Positions 8,165 to 48,263 of a DNA stretch of 64,000 nt are shown piece after piece. Numbering within the stretch: position 1 is the stretch's first letter; every line of letters begins with the position of its first letter. Source of the DNA: Patescibacteria group bacterium (GTDB lineage Bacteria; Patescibacteriota; Patescibacteriia; UBA9934; GWF2-40-263); assembly GCA_041661745.1 (NCBI GenBank), contig JBAZTR010000003.1:11965-75964 (forward strand). The letters are read 5' to 3'. The translations under genes and the position numbers were made by a program. Under the pieces are notes generated by a model that ran no database searches, had not been told where the DNA came from, and saw nothing but the letters and a program-made list of their open reading frames with translations.

Positions 8165-9284
8165 TTATGTGTCTTTATTTTCTTTGGCCCAACGATCGGA
8201 ATCGCCCAAAAGCTTTCTTAAATAAGCTTCAATGAATTGATCAATTTCGCCATTCAAAATTCCTTGCGTATCGGCTGTTTCAAAATCAGTCCGATGATCT
8301 TTAACCAACTGATACGGCTGAAGAACATAACTTCTGATTTGATTGCCCCATTCGGCACTCTTGAATTCCCCGCGCAGTTTCTTTTTCTCGGCCGCCAATT
8401 CCTGTTCTTGTTTATGAAAAAGTTTGGAAGCCAAAATCTTCATGGCCGTTTCCTTATTCTGTTGTTGACTGCGTTCGTTTTGGCATTGCACGGTAATGTT
8501 GGTGGGAATATGAACAATGCGCACGGCCGAATAAGTGGTGTTAACCGACTGACCACCCTTCCCGCCCGACATAAAAGTATCAATGCGCAAATCTTTAGGA
8601 TCAATGGCAACCGCGGAAATTTCTTCGAGTTCGGGAATCACCTCAATTAAAGCAAAGGAGGTGTGACGCATTTTTTCCGCGTCAAAAGGCGAGATACGCA
8701 CCAAACGATGGACACCGGCTTCGGATTTCAAATAACCAAAAGCGTAACGGCCGGCCACGCGAAAAGTCACGGATTTAAAACCAGCTTCCTCACCGCGCGA
8801 TTCCCACAAAACATCAACGGAAAAATTTTTCTTTTCGGCAAAACGTGTCAACATCCTAAACAGCATCTCGGCCCAATCCATTGCCTCGGTTCCCCCGGCT
8901 CCGGCGTGAATGGAAACAATGGCGTTGCTGGTATCGTGCTCACTGCAAAATAAAACAGTAAACTCCAACGCGGAAAATTTCTTTTCAATATCGATCAACT
9001 TATTCTGAATTTCATCACGCAAATTTTCGTCACCTAATTCAACCAAATCTTTGAGCTCGACTAATTCTTTTTTTATTCCCTCCCAAACTTCAAGTTCAGT
9101 CCGCAAATCAGCCGCCTTTTTGGAAACCTGTTTAGCCTTATCCTGATTAGACCAAAAATCCGAAGAGGCCATTTCGGCCTCTAGTGCTTTGACCTCAATT
9201 TTTACCCGATCAAGGTCAAAGTAACCCCCAAGTCGCGACCACGCGTGCCTGGAGGCTCTCAATTTTATTTAATAAATCTTTCAT
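8165..9284 (-). CDS. prfB: Peptide chain release factor 2 with programmed +1 ribosomal frameshift
   Basis: GGQ motif (SGGKGGQSVNTT). True ATG at 9284 gives MKDLLNKIESLQARVVATWGLL, then in-frame TGA within CTT TGA C (9215-9221) preceded by an internal GGGGG SD mimic. The +1 frame continues DLDRVKIEVKALEAEM. The ORF-track TTG start at 9262 is an artefact of the shift. Confidence 0.85.
9215..9230 (-). promoter_or_regulatory. RF2 autoregulatory +1 frameshift site (TGG GGG TTA CTT TGA C)
   Basis: Same architecture as the E. coli prfB site AGG GGG TAT CTT TGA C. Confidence 0.8.
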
Positions 9285-9287
9285 AAG

Positions 9288-9327
9288 GGCTGGAGAAGCT
9301 TGAGAGGCCGGAAAGGCTAGAAAGGCC
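9288..9327. repeat. Tandem about 9-bp repeat array (GAGAAGCTT GAGAGGCC GGAAAGGCT AGAAAGGCC), left arm of the inverted pair around the IVS-protein gene
   Basis: Purine-rich units on the plus strand. The mirror array is at 9704-9746. Confidence 0.7.
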
Positions 9328-9718
9328 TTATTTCGGTCCCAATTTTTTTGATGAATCTAAACAGCAAGAAATCCGTCTGTGTCCTCAGGTCTTCAAGATA
9401 TTCATATTCAGTATCGTTTAGGTACCCTAAGTCTTTCGAAAGTTTCAAGAAAAACTGACATTCCCACAAAGACCCTTTGGCTATATTAAGAAAACGTAAA
9501 AAATCTTTATCCGACGGCTTGGCACGACCCTCAACAATATTGGCTGAAACAGATACCGCGGCTCGGCGTAATTGACTTACAATTCCGTATTTCTCTTCGT
9601 TTGGAAAAAACTTGGTCAGTCTATAAACTTCGATGACAAATTCATAACTCTTTTGCCAAGCCAAAATATTTTGATATGGCTTATTTGTAATAATTCCATC
9701 CATAAGCCTCTCAGGCAT
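9317..9718 (-). CDS. Four-helix-bundle protein of the 23S rRNA intervening-sequence (IVS) protein family (Avd-like fold)
   Basis: Family signature KYGIVSQLRRAAVSVSANIVEG. Both termini (MPERLM.. and ..RPF) are encoded by the flanking repeat units. An alternative start is the second Met at 9703. Confidence 0.75.
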   Translation of the reverse strand: MPERLMDGIITNKPYQNILAWQKSYEFVIEVYRLTKFFPNEEKYGIVSQLRRAAVSVSANIVEGRAKPSDKDFLRFLNIAKGSLWECQFFLKLSKDLGYLNDTEYEYLEDLRTQTDFLLFRFIKKIGTEIRPF

Positions 9719-10092: not shown

Positions 10093-10742
10093 TTACTGCT
10101 TAATTCTAACAAATTGACGAAGATTTTCAAGAGCTAAATTCGCCGTCTCCTTACCGCTGACATGAATGGCTCGGCCACCCAGGCCAGCGAAAAAATTACA
10201 CGTGTTCAAAGAATCATCAATTAAAAAAGAGTCATGAATCGGCACACCAAACTCGCGCAAAGCTGCCAAAAAAGACTCCCCGTCTTTTTCTGTTTTCAAA
10301 TATCCCAAGTCGGAAGAAACAACGATTTTATCAAAAACTTCGTCGAGTTTTAATGCCGGTACGGTAAAACGAGTGAAACAATCCATATTCCCGGTAACCA
10401 AAACAACATAAGCCGAGGAACGAAGTTTATAAATAGCTTCTCTCAAGGCGTTATCTAAGACCATAGTACAACCAAGGCGTTATCTAAGACCATAGTACAA
10501 CAGGTCGCGGTAAAATCTTGCCACAACAGGTCGTATGGCAAACCGGTCCATTCGGCAACCAAACTATTTATCTCCTCTGAAGAATATTGCCCGCGCATCC
10601 AGTCGTCATGCAAGGCTGGTCCATCACCAAAAATTTTTTCGTGGGCAACTTTCATTTCATCCTGGTCACGCAGACGACGCCAAAATTTATCACAACAAAG
10701 GGTACCGGACCAGTCGACAAAAATGACGAATTTCTTATCCAT
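10093..10742 (-). pseudogene. HAD-superfamily hydrolase gene disrupted by a 29-bp tandem duplication (split into ORFs 10455-10742 and 10093-10464)
   Basis: The N-terminal ORF has FVDWSGTL (HAD motif I-like) and ends ..CCTMVLDNALVVLWS*. The C-terminal ORF restarts MVLDNALREAIYKL... The peptide MVLDNAL is encoded twice by the duplicated 29-mer. Confidence 0.65.
10444..10501. repeat. Exact 29-bp direct tandem duplication CAAGGCGTTATCTAAGACCATAGTACAAC x2
   Basis: Copy 1 is 10444-10472 and copy 2 is 10473-10501. 29 is not a multiple of 3, so it frameshifts the HAD gene. Confidence 0.9.
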
Positions 10743-10765: not shown

Positions 10766-10781
10766 AAAACCAGCCGTCGAA
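10766..10781. repeat. 16-bp direct repeat AAAACCAGCCGTCGAA (left boundary of high-GC island 1)
   Basis: Identical copy at 11483-11498. Confidence 0.8.
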
Positions 10782-10884
10782 GGTTATTAAATACCAATGA
10801 ATATTGACCGCCTGGTCGAAACCTGCTAAATTAAACGGCCGACTGAAACACGATTGCCGCCCAGTTAGGCGGATTGGAGGAATT

Positions 10885-11430
10885 ATGGTCGGACGCAAAC
10901 ATTCCAAGACCGAGCTCGCCATCCTCGCCGGGATGCTGGTCTGCATCATCATCGGCGTGACCACCGCAGTGTGGTCTGGTGAGAAGTCCGCGCCGACTGT
11001 CCAGGATTTCCCGCCCGTCGGCAAGTACGGCATGCTCCTCTGTGTGCCGCAGGGCGGCAAGGAGGGCGATACCCTCGAGATCTACCTTGCCAACTCCACC
11101 CTGATGAACTGCCAGCCCACCCAGCCGAGCCGCATACTCGTTCTCCGGCCCGAGGGAGACAAGGGGATGTGCGGCAGGGTCGACGCCTGCCTCAACCCCG
11201 GCACTGCCACCGAGATCAAGGTGATGGGGCCGCCGCCGTTCGGACAGGTTGATCTCTGGTCGTACTGGGCGAAGACCCGGGACGGCTCGGGGTCCGAAGT
11301 GCGAGGCGAGGGACGGATCATCCTCAAGGCCGAGAACGACTTCAGCGCCGTGGTGCTGGTCGTGTCCCGGCTCGCGACCTATGGGCTCATGATAGAACGG
11401 CCCGATTCCGTGGGGCCGCTCGCCAAGTGA
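10885..11430 (+). CDS. Hypothetical membrane-anchored protein encoded in a high-GC island
   Basis: GGAGG 6 nt before ATG 10885. 181 aa with N-terminal TM helix (LAILAGMLVCIIIGVTTAVW). GC3-rich codons. Own terminator follows. The antisense ORFs are compositional artefacts. Confidence 0.5.
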   Translation: MVGRKHSKTELAILAGMLVCIIIGVTTAVWSGEKSAPTVQDFPPVGKYGMLLCVPQGGKEGDTLEIYLANSTLMNCQPTQPSRILVLRPEGDKGMCGRVDACLNPGTATEIKVMGPPPFGQVDLWSYWAKTRDGSGSEVRGEGRIILKAENDFSAVVLVVSRLATYGLMIERPDSVGPLAK

Positions 11431-11440
11431 GCGCGGCTTC

Positions 11441-11474
11441 CTCATGTCCTGTTCGTGGAAACGACAGGACTTTT
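11441..11474 (+). terminator. Intrinsic terminator after the island-1 ORF (GTCCTGTTCG tggaaa CGACAGGAC TTTTTTATTT)
   Basis: Hairpin followed by a T-run. Confidence 0.5.
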
Positions 11475-11475
11475 T

Positions 11476-11500
11476 TATTTCAAAAACCAGCCGTCGAAAC
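11476..11500 (-). terminator. groEL intrinsic terminator (CCAGCCGT cgaa ACGGCTGG, with a U-run on the minus strand)
   Basis: On the minus strand it reads CCAGCCGUUUCGACGGCUGGUUUUUG. It contains the right copy of the 16-bp island repeat (11483-11498). Confidence 0.55.
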
Positions 11501-11516
11501 GGCTGGCTAAAAACCT

Positions 11517-11548
11517 ACAAGCTACTTCCTACCTCCTACAAGCTAGTA
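11517..11548. repeat. 7-nt-periodic CTAC repeat (CTACAAG CTACTTC CTACCTC CTACAAG CTAG) in the groEL 3' UTR
   Basis: Related copies at 17803-17835 (inverted) and 17884-17908. Overlaps the groEL stop codon. Confidence 0.6.
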
Positions 11549-13162
11549 CATCATCCCTGCCCCACCACCATGCTCGTGTTCCGGTTCTTCTTTTTTCGGC
11601 AAATCGGTCACCGCTGCCTCAGTGGTCAAAACCATAACCGCAATGGAGGCGGCATTTTGTAACGCTGAACGAGTTACTTTAGCCGGATCAATAATGCCAG
11701 CCATCAGCATGTCTTCATAAACATCAGTCTCGGCGTTGTAGCCAAAACCGGCTTCGCCTGATTTAACTTTATCAACCACCACTGATCCATCTTTACCGGC
11801 ATTGGCGGCAATCATACGAATCGGTTCCTCCAAAGCGCGACGAAGGATATCAAGACCAATGCGTTCTTCGCCAATAGTAATAACTGTGTCGAGAACTTTT
11901 AAGACACGCAAATAGGCCACACCACCGCCCGGGACAATTCCCTCTTCCACTGCAGCTTTGGTGGCCGCCACGGCGTCTTCAATACGATGTTTCTTTTCTT
12001 TCATTTCGGTTTCCGTGGCCGCACCAACTTTGATAACTGCCACACCGCCGGCCAATTTGGCAATACGCTCTTGAATTTTTTCTTTTTCAAAATCAGATTC
12101 CGTTGTCTCTAATTGCTTTTTAAGACTCAGAACGCGTGCTTCAACAACATCTTTGGCTCCGGCTCCGTCAACAATAATAGTATGGTCCTTATCGGCCACA
12201 ACTTTTCGTGCTCGACCAAGATCAGCGAGCTCAATAGCATCAAGTTTCAAACCAACTTCGTCGGAAATAACTCGCCCGCCAGTGACAATAGCCAAATCTT
12301 CCAACATGGCTTTGCGACGATCACCAAAACCCGGGGCTTTAACTGCCAAAATATTATAAACGCCACGAAGTTTGTTGTAGACAAGAGTCGTTAATGCTTC
12401 GCCGTCAACATCCTCGGCAATAATCACCAGCTCCTTACGACCGGTTTGCGCCACTTTTTCTAGAAGCGGAAGCAAATCTTGAATCGAACTAATTTTTTTA
12501 TCAGTGATTAAAAGCAAAGCATCGTTATATTCGGATTCCATGCGATCGGGATTGGTAATCAAATAGGGCGAAACATAACCTCGATCAAATTGCATTCCTT
12601 CAACCACCTCAACCTCAACACCAAACGACTGCGATTCTTCAACCGTAATCACCCCGTTCTCGCCAACCTTGGCCATAGCCTCGGCAATCTTGCAGCCGAT
12701 CTCTTTATCATTGGCCGAAATGGAAGCGACCTGCTCAATCTCCGCGCCTTTAATTGGGGTGGCGATTTTTTTAATCTCACTGACAATCGCTTCAACCCCT
12801 TTTTCAATCCCGCGACGTAAAAGTTGCGGATTGGTACCGGCCGTAACATTGCGAATACCTTCGGCGATAAGGGCTTGAGCTAAAACTGTGGCCGTAGTTG
12901 TACCATCACCGGCCACATCATTGGTTTTGGAAGCAACTTCTTTTACTAATTCTGCGCCAAGATTTTCAAACTTGTCTTCAAGTTCAATTTCTTTGGCCAC
13001 GGTTACGCCATCTTTGGTCACGGTCGGTGCGCCATAGCCTTTATCCAAAATAACATTACGACCGCGTGGCCCCAAAGTAACTTTCACAGCATTGGCCACT
13101 TGGTCAACGCCTTTTTTTAATTTGTGACGAACCTCTTCGTTGAAAAGTAATTGCTTAGCCAT
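11543..13162 (-). CDS. groL: Chaperonin GroEL (60 kDa)
   Basis: [37 protein letters not shown]...; [24 protein letters not shown]; C-terminal GGGAGMMY tail. Confidence 0.95.
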
Positions 13163-26722: not shown

Positions 26723-26851
26723 AACAGTATTAGAAGTATACGAAAAAATGGCCTTTTTCGCAATACTGAATTTTACACTTCCCTTTTGTCTAACTTACTG
26801 CTAAATTACCGGAGCGAAAAAACTCCAACTCCGACTGGGAGGCAAACTCCG

Positions 26852-27178
26852 ATGGACGATCCTTTCCGAACCTTTTGCATTTGCTGGTTGGTACCTCATG
26901 TTCTCCACTCCAGCGAGCAGATCTGCCCCCACCGTGCCCTCCTGGCCAAGGTCCTCGACCGCACCGGGTCGGCCGTGTGCATGCCCTGGCAGCTCGCTCT
27001 GACGCCCGAGGCTTACCTGGAGCGCCTGGGCTTCGACAAGGCCGAACTCGAGGAGTGCAACGCCTTCCTCGGCCAGTTCGGTCTGCACCTCGGCATGAAC
27101 GCCGACGACCTGCCGGAGGGCGACTTCCCGTGGTGCAACGAGATCTTCACCCTTCCCGACTTGGCTGCGGCCGCCTAG
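26852..27178 (+). CDS. Hypothetical small protein encoded in high-GC island 2
   Basis: GGGAGG 9 nt before ATG 26852. 108 aa (MDDPFRTFCICWLVPHV...). GC3-rich. Followed by a GC hairpin plus T-run. Confidence 0.45.
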   Translation: MDDPFRTFCICWLVPHVLHSSEQICPHRALLAKVLDRTGSAVCMPWQLALTPEAYLERLGFDKAELEECNAFLGQFGLHLGMNADDLPEGDFPWCNEIFTLPDLAAAA

Positions 27179-27204
27179 TCTCCAAGACCCTGAGGCCAGT
27201 CGAA

Positions 27205-27240
27205 GGGCTCTGCCCCGAGCAATCGTCTCCGGGGCTTTTT
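27205..27240 (+). terminator. Intrinsic terminator (GCCCCGAG..CTCCGGGGCTTTTT)
   Basis: Hairpin plus T-run after the island-2 ORF. Confidence 0.45.
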
Positions 27241-27387
27241 AATACCAACCCCTGACAAAAACCTTAACGCCCTATAATGCCCGAACGCCGCCTAGCCAAC
27301 CACTTCCCTTGACCTTATCCGCCTGGGCGGGTAATATAACTCCTTAACCATTCCTTCCCCATGCTTAAGGGTTAATACAAAAACTAG

Positions 27388-27419
27388 TCTCCTAGGCTCC
27401 TAGCTTCCTACCCTCCTAA
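27388..27419. repeat. 8-nt periodic pyrimidine repeat TCTCCTAG GCTCCTAG CTTCCTAC CCTCCTAA in the nrnA leader
   Basis: Contains CCTCCT (anti-SD-like) instead of an SD. Confidence 0.5.
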
Positions 27420-27430
27420 TCAAAAAAAGC

Positions 27431-28561
27431 ATGGTCTCCGAAACCCCAAAACAAATATTTGAAGCAATCCGCCGCAGTTCGGCGCCACTTTTAGTTTTGC
27501 CGCGCGGGGCCGGAGCCGATGGTTACGCCAGTGCTGTTGGTTTTTATAAATTGATTGAAGGTATGGGTAAACCGGTCGAAATGGTGGCGGCCGACGGTGT
27601 CACTCCAATCAACCTTGGTTTCCTGCCCGGCATGGAAAAAATAAAACCAGCTGTCGAAAACTTGCGCCAACTGATGATAGAGCTAGACACTAGCCAAACA
27701 CATGTTCAAGATATGCGCCACGAGGAAAAAGACGGACGGCTTTCTATTTCTTTCACCCCACATCAGGGTGGATGGAGTGAAAAAGATGTTCGAATTTCTC
27801 ATTCCGCTTATCGTCATGATTTGATTATTTGTTTCGGAGCGTCTGATCTTGAAGCTTGCGCCCACCTTTATCATGACCATAAAGATTTCTTCTTTCGCAC
27901 CCCAATCATTAATATTGATCACTCACCTGACAATGAACATTTTGGCCAAATCAACCATGTCGACCTGACCGCTTCGGCTATTGGTGAAGCCTGCTTTGAA
28001 CTAGTTCACTCAATCAACCCAACCCTTATCAACGAGGAAATCGCCACGGCTTTTTTAACCGGCATGATTGCCAAAACTCGTAGTTTCCGTACTCCACATT
28101 TAACCCCGAAAACCTTGGAAGTGGCCGGAAAACTAATGTCCCTCGGTGCTCGTCGCCAAGATATTGTCCGTAATTTATTCCAAACTCGTTCCGTTCAAAC
28201 TCTGCGCTTGTGGGGCCGCGCCCTGGCTCGATTAAAATCTGATCCCGAAGCAAAAATCGTTTGGACAATGCTTTCCCAGCAAGATTTCTTACACGCCGGA
28301 GCCCGTGAGGAAGATTTACCTGATGTGATTGATGAATTAATTTCCAATTCGCCGGAGGCAAAAATCATTGTTCTACTCTACGAAAATCATGCCCGTCATA
28401 TTTGTGGCATTATCCGCGCCGAGCCACCACACGATGCCCGTCGGCTAGCTGAATTATTTTCGGCGGTCGGAACCAGGGGAGAGGTTCATGTTTGCCTGGA
28501 GAAAAAAACAATCGTTGAGGCCGAGAAAGAAATTATTGAAGCAATTAAAAAACTGGTTTAA
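27431..28561 (+). CDS. nrnA: DHH-family phosphoesterase, NrnA-like (nanoRNase/pAp phosphatase)
   Basis: DHH motif NIDHSPDNEHFG; DHHA1-type C-terminal region. Confidence 0.75.
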   Translation: MVSETPKQIFEAIRRSSAPLLVLPRGAGADGYASAVGFYKLIEGMGKPVEMVAADGVTPINLGFLPGMEKIKPAVENLRQLMIELDTSQTHVQDMRHEEKDGRLSISFTPHQGGWSEKDVRISHSAYRHDLIICFGASDLEACAHLYHDHKDFFFRTPIINIDHSPDNEHFGQINHVDLTASAIGEACFELVHSINPTLINEEIATAFLTGMIAKTRSFRTPHLTPKTLEVAGKLMSLGARRQDIVRNLFQTRSVQTLRLWGRALARLKSDPEAKIVWTMLSQQDFLHAGAREEDLPDVIDELISNSPEAKIIVLLYENHARHICGIIRAEPPHDARRLAELFSAVGTRGEVHVCLEKKTIVEAEKEIIEAIKKLV

Positions 28562-34181: not shown

Positions 34182-34970
34182 TTACAACGAATCTTGATTT
34201 TGGAAAAGGGCCACGGCATACTCCCAGTACTTCCCTTGCTCACCGGCACACTCGGCCGCTTCGGCGGCATTCTCGGCCTGATCGTGGAAAGAAAGGGGGA
34301 AATCGCGGAGTACCCATCTTACCTTACCGGAATAATCTTTCAAGACCTGTTGCATGGTCGCGTCAAAACCCTGGCAATAAGGACATTGAAAATCAGTGTA
34401 GGTAACAATTGTAATATCGCCTGAACCGGCAATATGATCGCTTTCGGTTACCGCGGCCAAGGTGCCGGAGACATCGGCTGTAGTAGCCGGTGTACCAGAA
34501 ACCGTGTTGCCCAAAGTTTTATCCAACAAGGCTTTCATGGAGGCGTAAGGAACCGCGCCGCCGGTAATCTGTTTAACTGAGCCGTCTTTATTAATTAAAA
34601 ACGAAGACGGTGTTCCTCGGACACCAGCGGCCGAGGCACTAGCCTGATCTGTTTTAATAATCGCCAATTTACTATTAGACGAAAGACAGGCATTGAAGGA
34701 ATCCAAATTAAGTCCGACTTTGGTGGCCAAATCTTTAAAAAGCTGATCCGGAGTAGTGGCCACAACATCAGTATTGGTATTATCAGCCGTTCCACCGGTG
34801 GCAACGACATTGTCGGTGTTGTTGGAACTACCGCCCTGCAAAACATAAACACCCAGACTGATAAAACCAGCCGTGCCAAGAATCAATAAAGAAGCGACGC
34901 AACCGATAATAAACGACTGCCTTGGTGAAAAAGCGTCGAAAAAAGATTTCTTTTGGAAAGGATTGTCCAT
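34182..34970 (-). CDS. DsbA-like thiol:disulfide oxidoreductase, membrane-anchored
   Basis: N-terminal TM; thioredoxin fold with FQCPYCQGFD (CxxC). Confidence 0.75.
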   Translation of the reverse strand: MDNPFQKKSFFDAFSPRQSFIIGCVASLLILGTAGFISLGVYVLQGGSSNNTDNVVATGGTADNTNTDVVATTPDQLFKDLATKVGLNLDSFNACLSSNSKLAIIKTDQASASAAGVRGTPSSFLINKDGSVKQITGGAVPYASMKALLDKTLGNTVSGTPATTADVSGTLAAVTESDHIAGSGDITIVTYTDFQCPYCQGFDATMQQVLKDYSGKVRWVLRDFPLSFHDQAENAAEAAECAGEQGKYWEYAVALFQNQDSL

Positions 34971-40550: not shown

Positions 40551-40570
40551 AATGGTTTGATTATAACAAA

Positions 40571-40642
40571 ACTCCCTTCCGCCAACCACTGGGAAGTGAC
40601 TGAAAGAAGGGGGCCGTCGAATTCGCTTTCGACGGGAAGATG
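40571..40642. repeat. Repeat element R_X (CTCCCTTCCGCCAACCACT...GAAGGGGG GCCGTCGAATTCGCTTTCGACGG GAAGATGG), 3' of island gene A
   Basis: The 5' half recurs at 41065-41112 and the hairpin half at 41879-41911. Confidence 0.7.
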
Positions 40643-40661
40643 GTTAGCGACCTTACGTTGA

Positions 40662-41039
40662 CTACAATTCCGCGGTCTCGATCGAGACGCGGATGAGCCG
40701 AACGTAACGGTCAAAGGCGAAGACCGCCCGGCCGGCCTCGTCGGTGCCGGCGACGATCAACCGCCCGGTCGCGTCGCGCTTGAACTCGGCGCGGAGCAGC
40801 GGGAAGGTGATTTCGCTGCGGGCCCCGAGGAGGCGCGCGAGGATCGGGAGAGGGGCGACCACTTCGGCCGCCACAACCTCGCCGACCTCGGCCGCCAACC
40901 GAGCCACCGTTCCGATGGGGTCGTCGCCAAAGGCGACGTCCATCGTGACGATTTCGAGGTCAATGCCGAACTTGGCACGGAGCCAGTCTTCGGCCGCGGG
41001 GAGGACGGGGTGACGGGTGATTCGGAGGAATTTGGACAT
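40662..41039 (-). CDS. Hypothetical protein A (125 aa) of the high-GC cassette array
   Basis: AGGAG 7 nt before the ATG. GC3-rich codons. 3' end encoded by a 14-bp palindrome GTCTCGATCGAGAC. Confidence 0.5.
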   Translation of the reverse strand: MSKFLRITRHPVLPAAEDWLRAKFGIDLEIVTMDVAFGDDPIGTVARLAAEVGEVVAAEVVAPLPILARLLGARSEITFPLLRAEFKRDATGRLIVAGTDEAGRAVFAFDRYVRLIRVSIETAEL

Positions 41040-41064
41040 GAGGAACTCCTAGGTTTGTTTTTCT

Positions 41065-41112
41065 CCCTTCCGCCAACCACTCGAGAGTGATTAGAAAAAG
41101 GGAGCTGTCGTG
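41065..41112. repeat. Repeat element R_Y (CTCCCTTCCGCCAACCACTCGAGAGTGATTAGAAAAAGGGAGCTGTCG)
   Basis: About 80% identical to the 5' half of R_X. Confidence 0.7.
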
Positions 41113-41234
41113 GAACAAGTACGATCCACAACAGGACGATTGTTTGGCCTTCCGCCCCCGCGGGCTAGGCTATACCTCCATTAAAGGTTAGGGGTTAAAG
41201 ATGGGCCGACCCGGCCGCCTTTCGGAGTTACCTC

Positions 41235-41723
41235 CTACTTGGCAGCCGATGCCGTTTTGGCCGGAGCCGAAGCCGCCCGCTTGGCCGCGGCCGAGCTGAT
41301 GCCAGACGCCTCGAGGGCGGCCGCCATCTTCTCGGCATTGGCCTCCGCCTCGATGCGCGCGGTGAGGCGGGCGGCGTGAGCCACCGCAACCTCGAGCCGC
41401 GCGACGCTGCGTCGGTGGGCCTCGAGAACCTCGACCAGCCGATTGGCCGCCAGTCGCTTGGCCGCAAGGGCCTCGCGACGAGCAGCTTCGGCGGCCCGCC
41501 CTTCCGCGATCGGCGCCTGGCGGGCAGCCGACCTCTGGAAGGCGGCGTCGGCCGCGACAAAGGCGGCGTCGGCATTCCGGCTTTCGACCTCGCGGTCGAA
41601 GAGGCGTGCCTCGACAGCCTTGAGGTCGGCCTGAGCCGGTCTCACCGCGAGCTTGATCTGGCGGTGGAGCTCGTCGGCCGGGGTAACGACGCGAGGGGCA
41701 CGGACAATACGAGCATGGAACAT
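41235..41723 (-). CDS. Ala/Arg-rich coiled-coil protein B (162 aa) of the high-GC cassette array
   Basis: AGGAGA 6 nt before ATG 41723. MFHARIVRAPRVV... The longer ORF-track versions (41846 start, or the Arg/Gly-rich alternate frame) are rejected. Confidence 0.5.
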   Translation of the reverse strand: MFHARIVRAPRVVTPADELHRQIKLAVRPAQADLKAVEARLFDREVESRNADAAFVAADAAFQRSAARQAPIAEGRAAEAARREALAAKRLAANRLVEVLEAHRRSVARLEVAVAHAARLTARIEAEANAEKMAAALEASGISSAAAKRAASAPAKTASAAK

Positions 41724-41878
41724 GACTGTCTCCTGACTGGGGGTAGAAGGAAAAGACCAGGAATAAATGATTGCTTGCCGTGGATCTCGGCCGGAACCAA
41801 GGAGGTGACCGAACGACCTGGCAAAGATCACATAGCAAGCAACCAAGAAATGATTTTATAAAAAATCAGCTCTTGGTT

Positions 41879-41911
41879 GCCGTCGAGTTCGTTCTCGACG
41901 GGAAGGATTGG
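41879..41911. repeat. Repeat element R_Z (GCCGTCGAGTTCGTTCTCGACGGGAAGGATTGG), hairpin half of R_X, immediately 3' of gene C
   Basis: CCGTCGAG..CTCGACGG inverted repeat. Confidence 0.7.
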
Positions 41912-41916
41912 CCGTA

Positions 41917-42078
41917 TCACACGGACCCGGTGCAGACGCGACGGATGATCTTTCCGTCACGCCGAACCACCACCACCTTCGGCCGCTTGGGCTTTGGGGT
42001 GGACCGGACGAGAGCCTCCGGATTGGTGGTGAACCAGGTGGCCAGATGCATTACGACGCCGTAGGACTTGGTAGTCAT
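41917..42078 (-). CDS. Small basic protein C (53 aa; below the ORF-track size cutoff)
   Basis: AGGAG 6 nt before ATG 42078. Hand translation: MTTKSYGVVMHLATWFTTNPEALVRSTPKPKRPKVVVVRRDGKIIRRVCTGSV*. Confidence 0.4.
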   Translation of the reverse strand: MTTKSYGVVMHLATWFTTNPEALVRSTPKPKRPKVVVVRRDGKIIRRVCTGSV

Positions 42079-42407
42079 CAGAAACTCCTGTTAAGGGGTG
42101 ACAACTTTTTTGGAAACATAAAGGGGACTTTGCAAGTCCCCAGAATATTTTTTGCTCCGGAAATTTGCCCGACACTTCCCCACCATTCGCCCAGGTCTGG
42201 GGTCCCAAACTAAGACAGGTTTGTGCCGAACAAATTTCCGGATCCGATCGAATTAACCTAATCCGATCAGTACGGCTAAAGTAGCCACCGCTGAAACTAT
42301 ATAAGTGATTGGGTACAACATAGAATTTCTTCTGCTGATAACAAGCATGGGGTTATCGGCAAGAGAGATTCGCGCAATCGGTTAGCCAAACCGACTGCGC
42401 GAGACGT

Positions 42408-42436
42408 GCCCCGAGGCTTCAGCCTCGGGTGTTTTG
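42408..42436 (+). terminator. Intrinsic terminator CCCGAGGC ttca GCCTCGGG TGTTTTGG
   Basis: 8-bp GC stem and tetraloop. The T-run follows on the plus strand only. Confidence 0.55.
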
Positions 42437-42475
42437 GACACACCTCCGGAAGTTTTTCGTTTATCCCCTGTTTTA

Positions 42476-42500
42476 GCCGTTGTCCAGACGGCTTTTTACC
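42476..42500 (+). terminator. Weaker terminator AGCCGT tgtccag ACGGCT TTTTACC
   Basis: 6-bp stem plus T-run. Confidence 0.35.
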
Positions 42501-42954
42501 AAGAAAACCTCGGCACGTGCCGAGTGCACGCATAGAGTGTTGGCCATACACTCCGCCTTGATTTTTCGGAAAACATGGGGTGTTAAGCGATCCGCAACAG
42601 GATCCGGAACATCTAATCTCTCTTAGAATGTTCCGATTTCTGTAGCGGATTTTACTCAATACATAATTTTTGCTGTATTGAGTCCAGATTGCCGAATTGG
42701 AACCTCGGACAAGGGTAAAACCCATGTTTTAACTGAATTCTGGGTGAAGTTGCCTATTCGAACAGTCCAGATCGCTTAGTGGCTCTTCGCTCACTTGTTC
42801 ACAAGCATTGAACGTTGCACTCTAACATAAACATAAAATACTGTCAAGGGTTAAAGTACCAAATCGACTATTTTGGCTAAAGTTAGAATAAAAAAATGTC
42901 CACGGTAAGTGGACAAATACTATTTTTTATCTAATATTAGCTGTATTTTACCCC

Positions 42955-42990
42955 TTGACAAATTTCCTGATTGTGATATTATAGCTTGTC
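42955..42990 (+). promoter_or_regulatory. Near-consensus sigma70 promoter: TTGACA, 16-17 nt, TATTAT/ATTATA
   Basis: cTTGACAaatttcctgattgtgaTATTATAgcttg. The predicted transcript starts near 42992 and is antisense to the 3' side of the TrmB-family gene. Confidence 0.5.
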
Positions 42991-43357
42991 TTTCAAAGGG
43001 GAAACCCAATGATTGACCGCTGCTGGACATCCGTTCAGCAGACCAGAGTCAGGTCGCCTCATCGCGACCTGGAGGACGACATGAACGGCTAACCCCCCCC
43101 TCTTCTAGTGCGGGGTGTTGGCAAAACTCCCATTCGTTGAATGGAGTCAAAAGGGGCAGAAACGTCCGTGAACAAAGAAAACACGGGCGACCGACAACAA
43201 GAACTTCGCCCCTTTAATCATGGATCATGGTCAACCTGACCCCGGTCCAAGACAAGACTCTTCAACGGAGGTGCGTTATGGGAGGCGCCTAACACCCCCA
43301 CAGCCCCCGCGGCACCAATGGTCTCGACGACCTGCGGTGCCCGGGGGTTCGTGATAT

Positions 43358-44104
43358 CTAGCGATCTTTTTCCGCGCCGTCCCAGGCCGCGTCAAACAAA
43401 ACCTTAGCGGTTTCGGCAAAAATTTTATTTTCCAAAACTACGGCAATTATTTTTCCAACAAAAGAAACAAAGGCAACACGGTTCCCATAGATCCAAATGT
43501 CACCATGAAATTCACCTAATTTATTTTTATCTAAAAAACGATAAGTAACCTTTTCACGTCGATGGGTCAATTCCCCGATGTGCAGAAGGTTAATTTTTAT
43601 TTTACCGGGATCAAGAACCATCCGAACATCTTTCAAAAGTTCAGAGTCTAAAAGATTATAGACATCCTCCATGTTAGATAATTCGCGTAAAGAATCTGGG
43701 GCAACTGAAGCCACGTCGGTAAAAATAGCGCTTAGAGCTTCTTGGCCCTCAAAAAAACGCACGGCTGGACGTTCGCCGCCACCCAACATTTTCACCTCTG
43801 GTAAAACCTTGTTTAAAGTTTCCAACTTTTCCTGCATTTCATGAACATGTTCTTTAAAATGCGATAAAGCGCGTTCCGGCTCTTCGGCAGCAAAAACCCG
43901 CTTCTTGCCACGTTCGTGAGAAGACATTAAACCGCGGTTTTGTAAGGCCTCAATATTGGTATAAGTGGCCGTGCGAGAGAGGTTGGCTTTTTTGGCAATT
44001 TCTTGTACCGGGGCTGGGCCAAGGTTCAAGCTGGCAAAATAAACCTTAGTTTCGGTTTCCGATAAACCGAGCGAGGTAAATAATCGAAAGATATCAGTTG
44101 ACAT
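43358..44104 (-). CDS. TrmB-family transcriptional regulator (N-terminal wHTH plus C-terminal domain)
   Basis: Start of protein ..KVYFASLNLGPAPVQEIAKKANLSRTATYTNIEALQNRGLM.. is a TrmB-type HTH. Confidence 0.7.
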   Translation of the reverse strand: MSTDIFRLFTSLGLSETETKVYFASLNLGPAPVQEIAKKANLSRTATYTNIEALQNRGLMSSHERGKKRVFAAEEPERALSHFKEHVHEMQEKLETLNKVLPEVKMLGGGERPAVRFFEGQEALSAIFTDVASVAPDSLRELSNMEDVYNLLDSELLKDVRMVLDPGKIKINLLHIGELTHRREKVTYRFLDKNKLGEFHGDIWIYGNRVAFVSFVGKIIAVVLENKIFAETAKVLFDAAWDGAEKDR

Positions 44105-47218: not shown

Positions 47219-47385
47219 CTAAAAACTGGGCAAATAATAACATTTATAGGCAAAAATGACAAATTTGTGAGATAAAAAACCGCGTGGCCGTGAAGCCATG
47301 CGGGAGGGGAGGGTGGATGCGAGAGTGTCCAAGGTCCAAGGAACCAAGAGCCATGCCAAGGGCAGAGGGCCAAAGAATCCCAGGG

Positions 47386-47958
47386 CTAGGAAACCTTGCG
47401 GAGAGCGAGGAAGCGGCAATGGGCATCCCAGTCGTCAGCGCCGTGGTCGATGTACAGGCGGCGCTCGCGGTCACCGCGATAGAGACAAGGGAAGAACAGG
47501 CGGCCGTGGCGGCGCCAGGCCTGGCCCAGAGCCACGATGGGGTAATTCCTCTGTTCCTCGGGGCACTTGGCTCCGTAGGCGAGGAGCTCAGCCGCCGAGG
47601 CGGGGATGACCCCCAACTGTTCGATCTCGTGGAGAGCTTCGTTGGTCGAGGCTCGACCGAGGTAGACGAGTACGGGCTCGTACTTGATCACGCCGGTGGA
47701 CTTGTTCGGGAAGTGCTCGGCCGTGACATCCATATCGCGACAGTTGTAGTGGCCGGCCGCGACCATCGCCTCGAAGGCGAGGTCATAGTTGACTTCGAGA
47801 ACGGAGTCCTCGAACCGCCCTTCGATGATGGCTTGGAGGGCGAGGCTGAGCTGCGCCGGGCTGAACGGGTAGCCGCCCCTCTGCCGGAGCTGGCGCTTGA
47901 TCTCAGTGAGCTGGCCGTCCAGATCGTAATACTGTTCGCCGGTGACGATGGGCGCCAT
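47386..47958 (-). CDS. Hypothetical protein D (190 aa) in high-GC island 4
   Basis: GGGAGA 6 nt before ATG 47958 (MAPIVTGEQYYDLDGQL...). GC3-rich. The antisense 260-aa ORF is rejected. Confidence 0.45.
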   Translation of the reverse strand: MAPIVTGEQYYDLDGQLTEIKRQLRQRGGYPFSPAQLSLALQAIIEGRFEDSVLEVNYDLAFEAMVAAGHYNCRDMDVTAEHFPNKSTGVIKYEPVLVYLGRASTNEALHEIEQLGVIPASAAELLAYGAKCPEEQRNYPIVALGQAWRRHGRLFFPCLYRGDRERRLYIDHGADDWDAHCRFLALRKVS

Positions 47959-48263
47959 GACGAATCTCCCTTTGTTGTGGCTTATGCCCGCCAGCGCCGT
48001 ATGCGCCGACAGACCTTCGCCGTCGTAGACCAGTTGTTGTCCCGATCTTCTTTCAAATTTCCTTAGAAAAACCTGAAAGAAAACCGCGAATTTAACGACT
48101 GACAATAACACAAAGTGACTGATTTGTCAATTCAAAACCCCTTCATCCTCCCTTGCCCTCCATAGCTCGCCTTGAGCGACGGAGGGTTCGTCCCCTTCAA
48201 CCTCTTCGTCCCCCAGCGCCCGCCATAGCCCAGCGAAGGCGGGTTTGATACAATACAAACTGT

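Follow-up and report, generated by a model that had tools for sequence, protein, structure and literature searches.

Here we describe a small G+C-rich insert in a Patescibacteria genome and address how it may have arrived there, working from a 64,000-nt stretch of contig JBAZTR010000003.1 (the window, whose positions we use throughout). Positions 10782-11482, between a HAD-family hydrolase gene and groEL, hold a compositionally foreign, self-contained one-gene unit, which we call island 1 or the cassette; its single open reading frame (ORF) is ORF1. The interval from groEL to the HAD gene, or to the adjacent gene for a DUF4870 protein, is an insertion hotspot in Uhrbacteria-like Patescibacteria, and the window insert is one foreign cassette there—an ordinary gene-acquisition event with an unusually clear footprint. 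As to its route, we favour horizontal acquisition with integration by homology-facilitated illegitimate recombination rather than by transposition; this explanation draws on an analogy with a related locus, and as a whole statement we consider it about evenly poised between right and wrong.

The base composition of the insert sets it apart from its surroundings. GC is 0.63-0.68 across 10782-11482 against about 0.44 in the flanks; in 200-bp windows it stands at 0.63-0.675 from 10.9 to 11.4 kb and at 0.39-0.47 on either side, over a window background of about 0.44-0.46, and the rise is located between the start of the HAD-family gene (10742, minus strand) and the groEL stop codon (11543, minus strand). 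The ORF at 10885-11430 has GC values of 0.615/0.473/0.857 at its three codon positions, a coding frame typical for a genome of about 65% GC, whereas GC at third codon positions (GC3) in host genes is 0.34-0.49 (n = 12 genes). Tetranucleotide frequencies, normalized for base composition, correlate with those of the host at r 0.40, compared with 0.64 +/- 0.10 for random 701-bp host pieces. The insert has, in short, the host-atypical composition by which genomic islets are recognized; the original prediction, made from the letters alone, had noted a G+C-rich, GC3-biased segment here, and the sliding-window GC step, the GC3 of 0.857 and the atypical tetranucleotides all bear this out.

The unit is also complete in its signals. 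A sigma-70-type promoter with an extended -10 element lies at 10804-10832 on the plus strand (TTGACC at 10804-10809, 17 nt, then TGC-TAAATT), with 9/12 consensus positions plus the TG in a consensus scan; it is an addition to the first description of the locus, and we infer from its sequence that it acts as the cassette promoter. The same architecture (TTGACC, 17 nt, TGC-TAATAT) is kept upstream of a homologous gene at locus L082 of a related genome. A Shine-Dalgarno GGAGG (10876-10880, plus strand) is placed 4 nt ahead of the ATG of the 181-aa gene (10885-11430, plus strand; NCBI MFA6132017.1, locus tag WC702_03060), and an intrinsic terminator follows at 11446-11476 on the same strand, made of a stem-loop at 11446-11470 and then TTTTTT; the 58 nt at 11425-11482 fold at -17.2 kcal/mol overall (z -2.05). 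At L082 a terminator of other sequence occupies the same place after the homologue. The single plus-strand ORF starting at 10885 behind its GGAGG, with an N-terminal hydrophobic helix and its own hairpin and T-run, had been read correctly from the start.

Public gene calls give a different picture of this segment. Those for the same-strain assemblies L083 (European Nucleotide Archive, ENA) and L084 (Logan) pick a 204-aa ORF on the minus strand (10831-11445) instead. GC at the codon positions of this ORF mirrors the plus frame, and in L082 the antisense frame is split into ORFs of at most 72 aa while the plus frame remains open; because of this mirroring, the broken frame and the conservation of the sense protein, we regard the 204-aa ORF as a shadow and not as a gene. 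A comparable choice is seen at L095 1055-1670, where public calls pick shadow ORFs (131 aa and 75 aa) and the true gene is a sense-strand lipoprotein gene. Shadow-ORF choice in such GC-rich islets is a systematic annotation error, and gene callers that choose the antisense shadow ORF in GC-rich islets of AT-rich metagenome-assembled genomes (MAGs) present an annotation hazard.

The antisense calls, together with the MAG origin of the sequence, are what speaks for an artefact—either an assembly or binning chimera, or an island whose real gene is the 204-aa antisense ORF. We put the chance of this close to negligible and consider the artefact effectively refuted. Three independent assemblies agree across the island and both junctions, the island being 100% identical in L083 and L084; an unrelated contig holds a homologous, likewise GC-rich cassette in the same context; the 16-bp repeat at the borders is presumably too short to mislead assemblers; and it is the sense protein that is conserved (E 4e-19), its antisense counterpart being broken in L082.

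The protein encoded by ORF1 starts with positive charges, followed by a hydrophobic helix of about 20 residues; the Kyte-Doolittle score over 19 residues peaks at 2.61 (residues 11-29), and at 2.19 at the N-terminus of the L082 homologue, P0002. An AlphaFold2 model, with a predicted local distance difference test (pLDDT) score of only 58, has a helix at residues 8-28 and about nine beta strands over about 140 residues. Four cysteines (C53, C76, C96 and C102) are invariant between ORF1 and P0002. A charged start, an N-terminal hydrophobic segment and conserved cysteines are what would be expected of an exported or membrane protein, and we infer that the product is membrane-anchored or exported. 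Its N-terminal helix would be cleaved or serve as an anchor, and the cysteine-bearing remainder would form a domain resembling a beta-sandwich; the protein probably faces the outside of the cell.

No family was found for ORF1 in Pfam, PHROGs, PADLOC or NCBIfam, in agreement with the first reading of the sequence; PDB sequences gave a chance-level match only (E 0.42), and a Foldseek search of the weak model (pLDDT 58) against PDB returned nothing below E 1e-3, only generic beta-sandwiches. The sole true homologue is P0002 (179 aa, 37% identity, E 4e-19), found with HMMER among 1.84e9 representatives; three further HMMER matches proved to be repeat-protein artefacts (cadherin/Big_9, fasciclin and a coiled repeat). 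A word-indexed search of 5.8e9 clusters matched ORF1 to itself only, the 90% clusters proved private to this genome, and a profile of both members brought in no additional members. Homology to the GC-rich lipoprotein of loci L095/96 was considered and rejected (hhalign probability 0.4%). The cassette protein is a new family with two members. A tetranucleotide ranking against 90 loci pointed to no clear donor, a 63%-GC Uhrbacteria genome being no better than the rest (r 0.58); neither a donor nor a composition-matched homologue, as might be sought for a genomic islet, was identified, and the only homologue lies in a related low-GC genome.

The footprint of the insert is an exact 16-bp direct repeat, AAAACCAGCCGTCGAA, at 10766-10781 and 11483-11498, for which about 0.05 matches per window would be expected by chance with 2 mismatches permitted. 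The right copy falls within the groEL terminator stem, as the original prediction had stated, and overlaps a complete palindrome at 11487-11506 (CCAGCCGT-CGAA-ACGGCTGG) with A-run and T-run flanks. This palindrome is a bidirectional intrinsic terminator that folds at -14.5 kcal/mol on the plus strand and -16.5 kcal/mol on the minus strand (z -5.1 and -4.3). It is the terminator of groEL on the minus strand, 36 nt past the stop codon and with UUUUU following the stem—the G+C-rich stem-loop and U-tract just downstream of a gene that characterize rho-independent termination—and it is also a back-stop for the converging cassette gene. The spacer that separates the hairpin from the groEL stop codon (spacer B, 11507-11542, minus strand) reads CTTGTAGGAGGTAGGAAGTAGCTTGTAGGTTTTTAG on the groEL strand and is homologous to the spacer before the HAD-side hairpin copy of L090, another related locus.

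The two repeat copies represent different parts of the palindrome. On the plus strand, the right copy takes in the A-run and 5' arm along with most of the loop. The left copy lies upstream of HAD, 23 nt from its start codon; it reads TTCGACGGCTGGTTTT in groEL orientation and corresponds to the 3' arm with some of the loop before it and the T-tract after it. Alone it has no fold, and it is best described as an unpaired half site. Its continuation, TTTTAATTATGGTAAT, is homologous to the stretch that comes after the complete HAD-upstream hairpin of L090. The left end of the insert itself is A+T-rich (GGTTATTAAATACCAATGAATA, 10782-10803, plus strand) and lies just 5' of the cassette promoter; L082 is without this end and without the left repeat copy, and there CCATAAT-GC joins the -35 box directly. 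Elsewhere in the window, a near copy of the repeat at 27643 and a copy of CGGCTGGTTTT at 34863 lie within host coding regions and are taken as coincidence.

The same interval was compared among relatives, whose loci were fetched via homologues of the adjacent DUF4870 protein; the best named relatives of the neighbouring genes belong to Candidatus Uhrbacteria. Flanking proteins are 67-92% identical across the related genomes: groEL (11543-13159, minus strand) is 91-92% identical to groEL of L085, L086, L090 and L091, the DUF4870 protein is 87% (L085) or 83% (L090) identical, and prfB reaches 88-89%. Between groEL (or Wzy) and HAD/DUF4870, the 12 loci, from about eight related lineages, hold 0-5 differing genes. 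The interval is a gene-turnover hotspot because its contents vary in this way while the flanks stay 67-92% identical, which is the arrangement of conserved syntenic flanks around varying content expected of hotspot islets.

The occupants range from none to several. L086, L091 and L093/94 have groEL, a different terminator and then DUF4870; L085 has groEL, the hairpin, a 165-aa membrane gene and an intact HAD gene; L081 has a 241-aa gene, an identical hairpin, a 166-aa gene, a 142-aa gene and HAD; and L090 has groEL, the hairpin, an antisense AT-rich 139-aa gene, a second hairpin and HAD. In L095/96 (Uhrbacteria GW2011_GWE2_45_35 type) the order is groEL, hairpin, GC-rich lipoprotein gene, abhydrolase, 176-aa gene, half hairpin, 188-aa gene and HAD; the half hairpin, TTCGCGGCTGGTTTTTTG, is a half copy based on CGGCTGGTTTT, and the lipoprotein gene (GC3 0.77), unrelated to ORF1, has its own promoter and terminator. 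L082, a 4.7-kb contig, carries DUF4870, a remnant of the HAD 3' end, the P0002 gene in antisense with its own terminator, the hairpin (AAAAACCAGCCGTCGAAACAGCTGG), an 83-aa gene, a second hairpin and Wzy. P0002 therein shares slot, orientation and hairpin junction with the window cassette, and its gene has a GC of 0.58 and a GC3 of 0.73 (0.728), compared with 0.43-0.51 for GC3 of L082 host genes. GC-rich single genes for exported proteins thus recur in this interval. The hairpin holds the same post-groEL position in L085, L090 and L095, and 15 invariant columns (TTCGACGGC, GG, TTT) are common to 8 hairpin copies from 5 genomes.

The finding of P0002 modifies the insertion interpretation first given to this locus: a foreign single-gene unit does sit at the groEL terminator, but neither is the gene unique nor its insertion a recent event private to this genome. 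Conservation of the gene and repeat in distant relatives with host-like composition had been named in advance as evidence against insertion. Of this, only one half applies: the relative L082 does share the ORF and the hairpin, yet its copy is without host-like composition.

The repeats found at the hairpin differ in length from genome to genome: about 15 bp in L095/96, 16 bp here, 27 bp in L082 (26/27 identical) and 34 bp in L090 (31/34). In the window, the HAD-side half copy, TTCGACGGCTGGTTTT-AATTATGGTAAT..., aligns with the L090 sequence beyond the complete hairpin that precedes HAD; because the continuation of the half copy aligns there, we take the ancestral order to be groEL-hairpin-HAD, with the hairpin since split in its loop. 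In L090, the groEL-side hairpin copy is preceded by a spacer also found in L085 (spacer A), and the HAD-side copy by the homologue of the window's spacer B. Because these preceding spacers differ, the two L090 copies have different ancestries, and they come from two versions of one intergenic region.

Homology-facilitated illegitimate recombination may explain such a pattern. The incoming DNA would have come from a relative that already carried the conserved flank, the hairpin and the cassette in that order; integration would have proceeded by recombination anchored in the conserved flank, that is, groEL and its terminator, and the other end would have been joined illegitimately inside the resident hairpin loop. 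The groEL side would then hold the complete hairpin that came in, the HAD side would keep the 3' half of the resident one, and the pair would present as the 16-bp "direct repeat". The hypothetical empty site, written as a synthetic junction, is CCATAATTAAAACCAGCCGTCGAAACGGCTGGCTAAAAACC.

A transposon-like insertion, with a 16-bp target-site duplication generated by staggered cleavage, would also place a perfect 16-bp direct repeat right at the borders of a discrete insert. It nevertheless seems very improbable: no terminal inverted repeats were found inside the direct repeat, the 701 bp encode neither a transposase nor an integrase, the single ORF has no family match, the insert is present as a single copy in 64 kb, and other inserts at the hairpin show other repeat lengths, with imperfect identity. 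To our knowledge, 16 bp exceeds the duplications of known bacterial insertion sequence (IS) families. Because repeat lengths vary and the L090 copies differ in ancestry and carry different spacers, a transposase footprint is disfavoured, and the initial proposal that insertion had duplicated its target probably does not hold in the transposase sense.

The age of the cassette may be approached through sequence divergence. Between the window and L082, host genes have an NG86 synonymous divergence (dS) of 1.6-2.0, at which synonymous sites are saturated; ORF1 and P0002 differ by a dS of 1.07 and a nonsynonymous divergence (dN) of 0.74, with dN/dS about 0.7 compared with 0.05-0.14 in host genes. 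On a rough estimate, neutral drift towards a host GC3 of about 0.45 since the split of the window lineage from L082 would leave a GC3 of no more than about 0.56. Because the GC3 values of 0.857 and 0.728 exceed this estimate, they suggest either acquisition after the split, which would mean movement among lineages, or a force that maintains GC. A GC3 of 0.73-0.86 in both family copies would call for frequent transfer from an unsampled GC-rich pool, or for such a force. The tree does not choose between one gain and two because the relatives are about equidistant.

The same data can be read as those of an old resident gene, gained once before the split from L082, inherited vertically and evolving fast, with its high GC3 kept by selection or local bias; the 16-bp repeat would then be the remnant of an old terminator duplication, and the surface protein would be under diversifying or relaxed selection. 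We judge this unlikely but credible. Locus, orientation, promoter architecture and cassette-hairpin junction are shared between the window and L082, the dS of the ORF (1.07) is not above that of host genes, the elevated dN/dS is as expected of a fast-evolving gene, and Wzy is closest between these two genomes (72%). An unrelated GC-rich secreted-protein gene also occupies the same slot in L095/96, which is why high GC in small exported-protein genes may be a clade trait. However, with synonymous substitutions exceeding one per site, it is hard to see how GC3 could stay at 0.857 unless some unexplained force acted; a perfect 16/16 repeat whose left copy is without evident constraint should decay (it is lost in L082), and L085 and L090, which are at least as close, are without the gene and have kept a seemingly ancestral membrane-gene arrangement.

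Several points weigh against acquisition by homology-facilitated illegitimate recombination. The donor-plus-recipient origin of the window copies is argued by analogy with L090, where the differing spacers fit it; the window 16-mers are identical (16/16), which would be equally expected from staggered-cut duplication. The synteny comparison proposed as a check found no exact empty site (hairpin then HAD in a near-identical strain) among the relatives; a GTDB groEL scan found no close relative (best 69% identity), a metagenome scan for the hairpin recovered only L081, and exact-protein look-ups of ORF1 and groEL for an empty site returned no record. No GC-rich genome, phage or plasmid with a homologue was found in the HMMER scan, in IMG/VR or by tblastn on phage and plasmid collections. 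The relatives being about equidistant, one ancient gain followed by losses may remain compatible with the data, and the amelioration argument is a rough one, with dS both saturated and biased by codon usage.

The hairpin might also be more than a terminator: it may be the site of a trans-acting recombinase, tyrosine/Xer-like or integron-like, with the repeat as attL/attR and the enzyme inserting circular one-gene cassettes that bear a partial copy of the site (a hypothetical, synthetic circular cassette junction would read ...GGACTTTTTTATTTCAAAAACCAGCCGTCGAAGGTTATTAAATACC...). Such a site-specific system is rather unlikely in our view, although the palindrome sequence is conserved in the 15 columns noted above despite saturated synonymous sites, and copies of the hairpin delimit no fewer than four independent gene units, spread over four genomes. 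The homology break of the window falls in the loop, the centre of an 11-6-11 palindrome if the A and T runs are included, and the cassette-side junction, ...TTTTxATTT(TA)CAAAAACCAGCC, is alike in the window and L082. On the other hand, the motif CCGTTTCGACGG was found only at this locus in the window and all loci compared, the repeat boundaries shift (loop, 5' arm, or about 30 nt upstream), a recombinase gene lies beside no hairpin copy, the cassettes carry their own promoters in either orientation, and the succession of A-run, stem and T-run has the look of an ordinary bidirectional terminator. A more specific version, in which the palindrome is the attachment site of an unrecognised Patescibacteria cassette-exchange system, integrase-free or served in trans, that shuttles single promoter-bearing orphan surface-protein genes, is decidedly unlikely. 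If it were true, the cassettes would stay GC-rich via a separate unsampled mobile pool or GC-biased diversification, and integron-like logic would have been built from ordinary terminators.

Island 1 has company in the window. Further GC-rich islets lie at 26801-27350, 40551-42100, 43051-43350 and 47251-48100, and the four together with island 1 amount to about 3.75 kb, or 5.9% of the window; all islands pooled correlate with host tetranucleotides at r 0.655 against 0.884 +/- 0.034. The other islet ORFs, at 26852-27178 (plus strand) and at 40662-41039, 41235-41723, 41917-42078 and 47386-47958 (all minus strand), have GC3 values of 0.79-0.86 and no Pfam, PHROGs, PADLOC, phage or plasmid match, including in tblastn phage/plasmid and IMG/VR searches of five other island proteins. 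A common origin of the islands was rejected: there is no paralogy among their proteins, the tetranucleotide signature of island 1 is no nearer to the other islands than that of random host DNA is, and the 9-mer GCCGTCGAA is not enriched.

This 9-mer had been proposed to link island 1 to island 3 (the 40-42-kb islet), a link that proves not to be significant: GCCGTCGAA has three matches in the window, two of which are the repeat itself, and 3/100 shuffles equal this. It is stem plus loop at island 1 and pure stem in island 3, where the 41.9-kb copy reads GCCGTCGAG. The resemblance of the motif to the Neisseria DNA uptake sequence led nowhere, with only 3 copies in 64 kb. Island 3 does show a footprint of the same type, with repeats whose lengths likewise speak against a fixed transposase duplication: a 48-nt repeat (81%; 40572-40619 and 41063-41110) flanks the ORF at 40662-41039 and is the duplicated upstream region of a host gene, and a 27-nt terminator hairpin (89%; 40613-40639 and 41879-41905) follows the ORFs at 40662-41039 and 41917-42078. 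The recurring element is not the GCCGTCGAA 9-mer but a general arrangement, duplicated terminator hairpins at cassette borders.

Other observations concern the islets and their edges. The window holds two copies, and no more, of a pyrimidine-rich motif around CTTCCTACC; they lie at 11511-11542 and 27384-27420, immediately beyond the right-hand borders of island 1 and island 2. The opposite strand of the motif is the GGA-rich TAGGAGGTAGGAAG, and at least two copies occurred in 5/100 shuffles. The motif gave an rsmX match below threshold (24 bits against a gathering score of 56), which was taken as chance, and there were no Rfam matches in island 1 or at 40-44 kb. The roughly 1.2 kb at about 42100-43360 are without a convincing ORF, contain many stem-loops (42156-42242 and 42842-42960 among them) and have a tail, at 43.05-43.35 kb, that is GC-rich; there is no Rfam match there even at E <= 1, and the region could be what is left of a mobile element or an RNA of no known class.

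The genes beside the cassette show changes as well. The HAD-family hydrolase gene (10093-10742, minus strand) is present as two ORFs of 95 and 123 aa with weak HAD matches, frameshifted by a perfect 29-bp tandem duplication at 10444-10501 that is found in all three strain assemblies. Intact 206-aa orthologues are present in L085, L090, L092 and L095; L081 has it split at a different position, L082 keeps only some 35 nt of it, and L086, L091 and L093/94 lack it altogether; the gene seems to be decaying across the clade. Between DUF4870 and prfB lies a gene of the 23S-rRNA-intervening-sequence-protein family (9317-9718, minus strand; PF05635, E 2e-35), found at the same spot in L090, L091 and L095/96 and absent in L081, L085, L086 and L093/94; because its presence differs among relatives, a second small variable slot lies beside the first. 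The prfB ORF (8165-9262, minus strand) has a TTG start and an odd N-terminus, MRASRHAWSRLGGYFDLD..., and the prfB calls of relatives begin MSA(A/V)DFW or run about 23 aa longer; judging from the sequence, this would fit the programmed +1 frameshift that is usual for RF2. In groEL, the ENA contig changes to a different allele at its end (L083 1-400, about window 12014-12400): 18 mismatches are crowded into window positions 12014-12086, after which the alignment stops. This may be an inter-strain assembly join within conserved groEL, or a true recombinant.

With their very small genomes, Patescibacteria are believed to rely on other cells, so how they gain surface or exported proteins is of interest. 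This locus offers a gene gain resolved to the base pair—a foreign unit in a split terminator, at a site with differing occupants in eight related lineages—and duplications of terminator hairpins are a possible searchable footprint of small gene insertions.

Of the systems to which the locus may be compared, homology-facilitated illegitimate recombination is known from natural transformation in Acinetobacter and Streptococcus pneumoniae. A one-sided homologous anchor with an imprecise join can likewise leave donor and recipient copies flanking foreign DNA, and it fits both the variable repeat lengths and the L090 mosaic. Unlike the generic process, the junction here is repeatedly at or near one palindrome; competence of the organism, and the process itself, are assumptions of the comparison. 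Terminator- or REP-targeting mobile elements, the latter directed at repetitive extragenic palindromes, include class C group II introns, IS1397 and IS110-type IS. The cassette resembles them in that insertion is tied to an intrinsic-terminator stem-loop, but it has no intron RNA (no Rfam match), reverse transcriptase, transposase or element ends.

Xer-dependent dif/pdif modules of Acinetobacter plasmids are small and bounded by palindromic sites of about 28 bp, two full ones in inverted XerC/XerD order, whose XerC and XerD arms enclose a 6-bp centre. The hairpin with its A and T runs has 11-6-11 geometry; in contrast to dif/pdif modules, only the right-hand site is whole, its left-hand counterpart being an unpaired half, and no likeness to known dif arms was established. 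Integron cassettes are similar in being single-ORF, mostly orphan units at a palindrome, with differing occupants per genome. They differ in that attC sites are imperfect palindromes of 57-141 bp with R and L boxes (R''/R') attached to a promoterless ORF, whereas the palindrome here is perfect and 20 bp long and the units have their own promoter (conserved in L082) and terminator, form no array and occur in both orientations. No intI, attI or cassette array was visible beside the hairpin copies read, the rest of the 64-kb window not having been systematically annotated.

Hotspots of horizontal gene transfer between conserved core genes have been described by Oliveira, Touchon and Rocha (2017; PMC5635113). 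The locus is like these hotspots in being a short interval between conserved genes with a content turnover of 0 to about 5 genes, and in that this content is largely foreign in composition and without recognisable mobile-element machinery. It is unlike them in its tiny scale of single 0.4-0.7-kb genes, in its setting within a reduced Patescibacteria genome with five GC-rich islets in 64 kb, and in its borders, where duplicated parts of one terminator hairpin turn up repeatedly.

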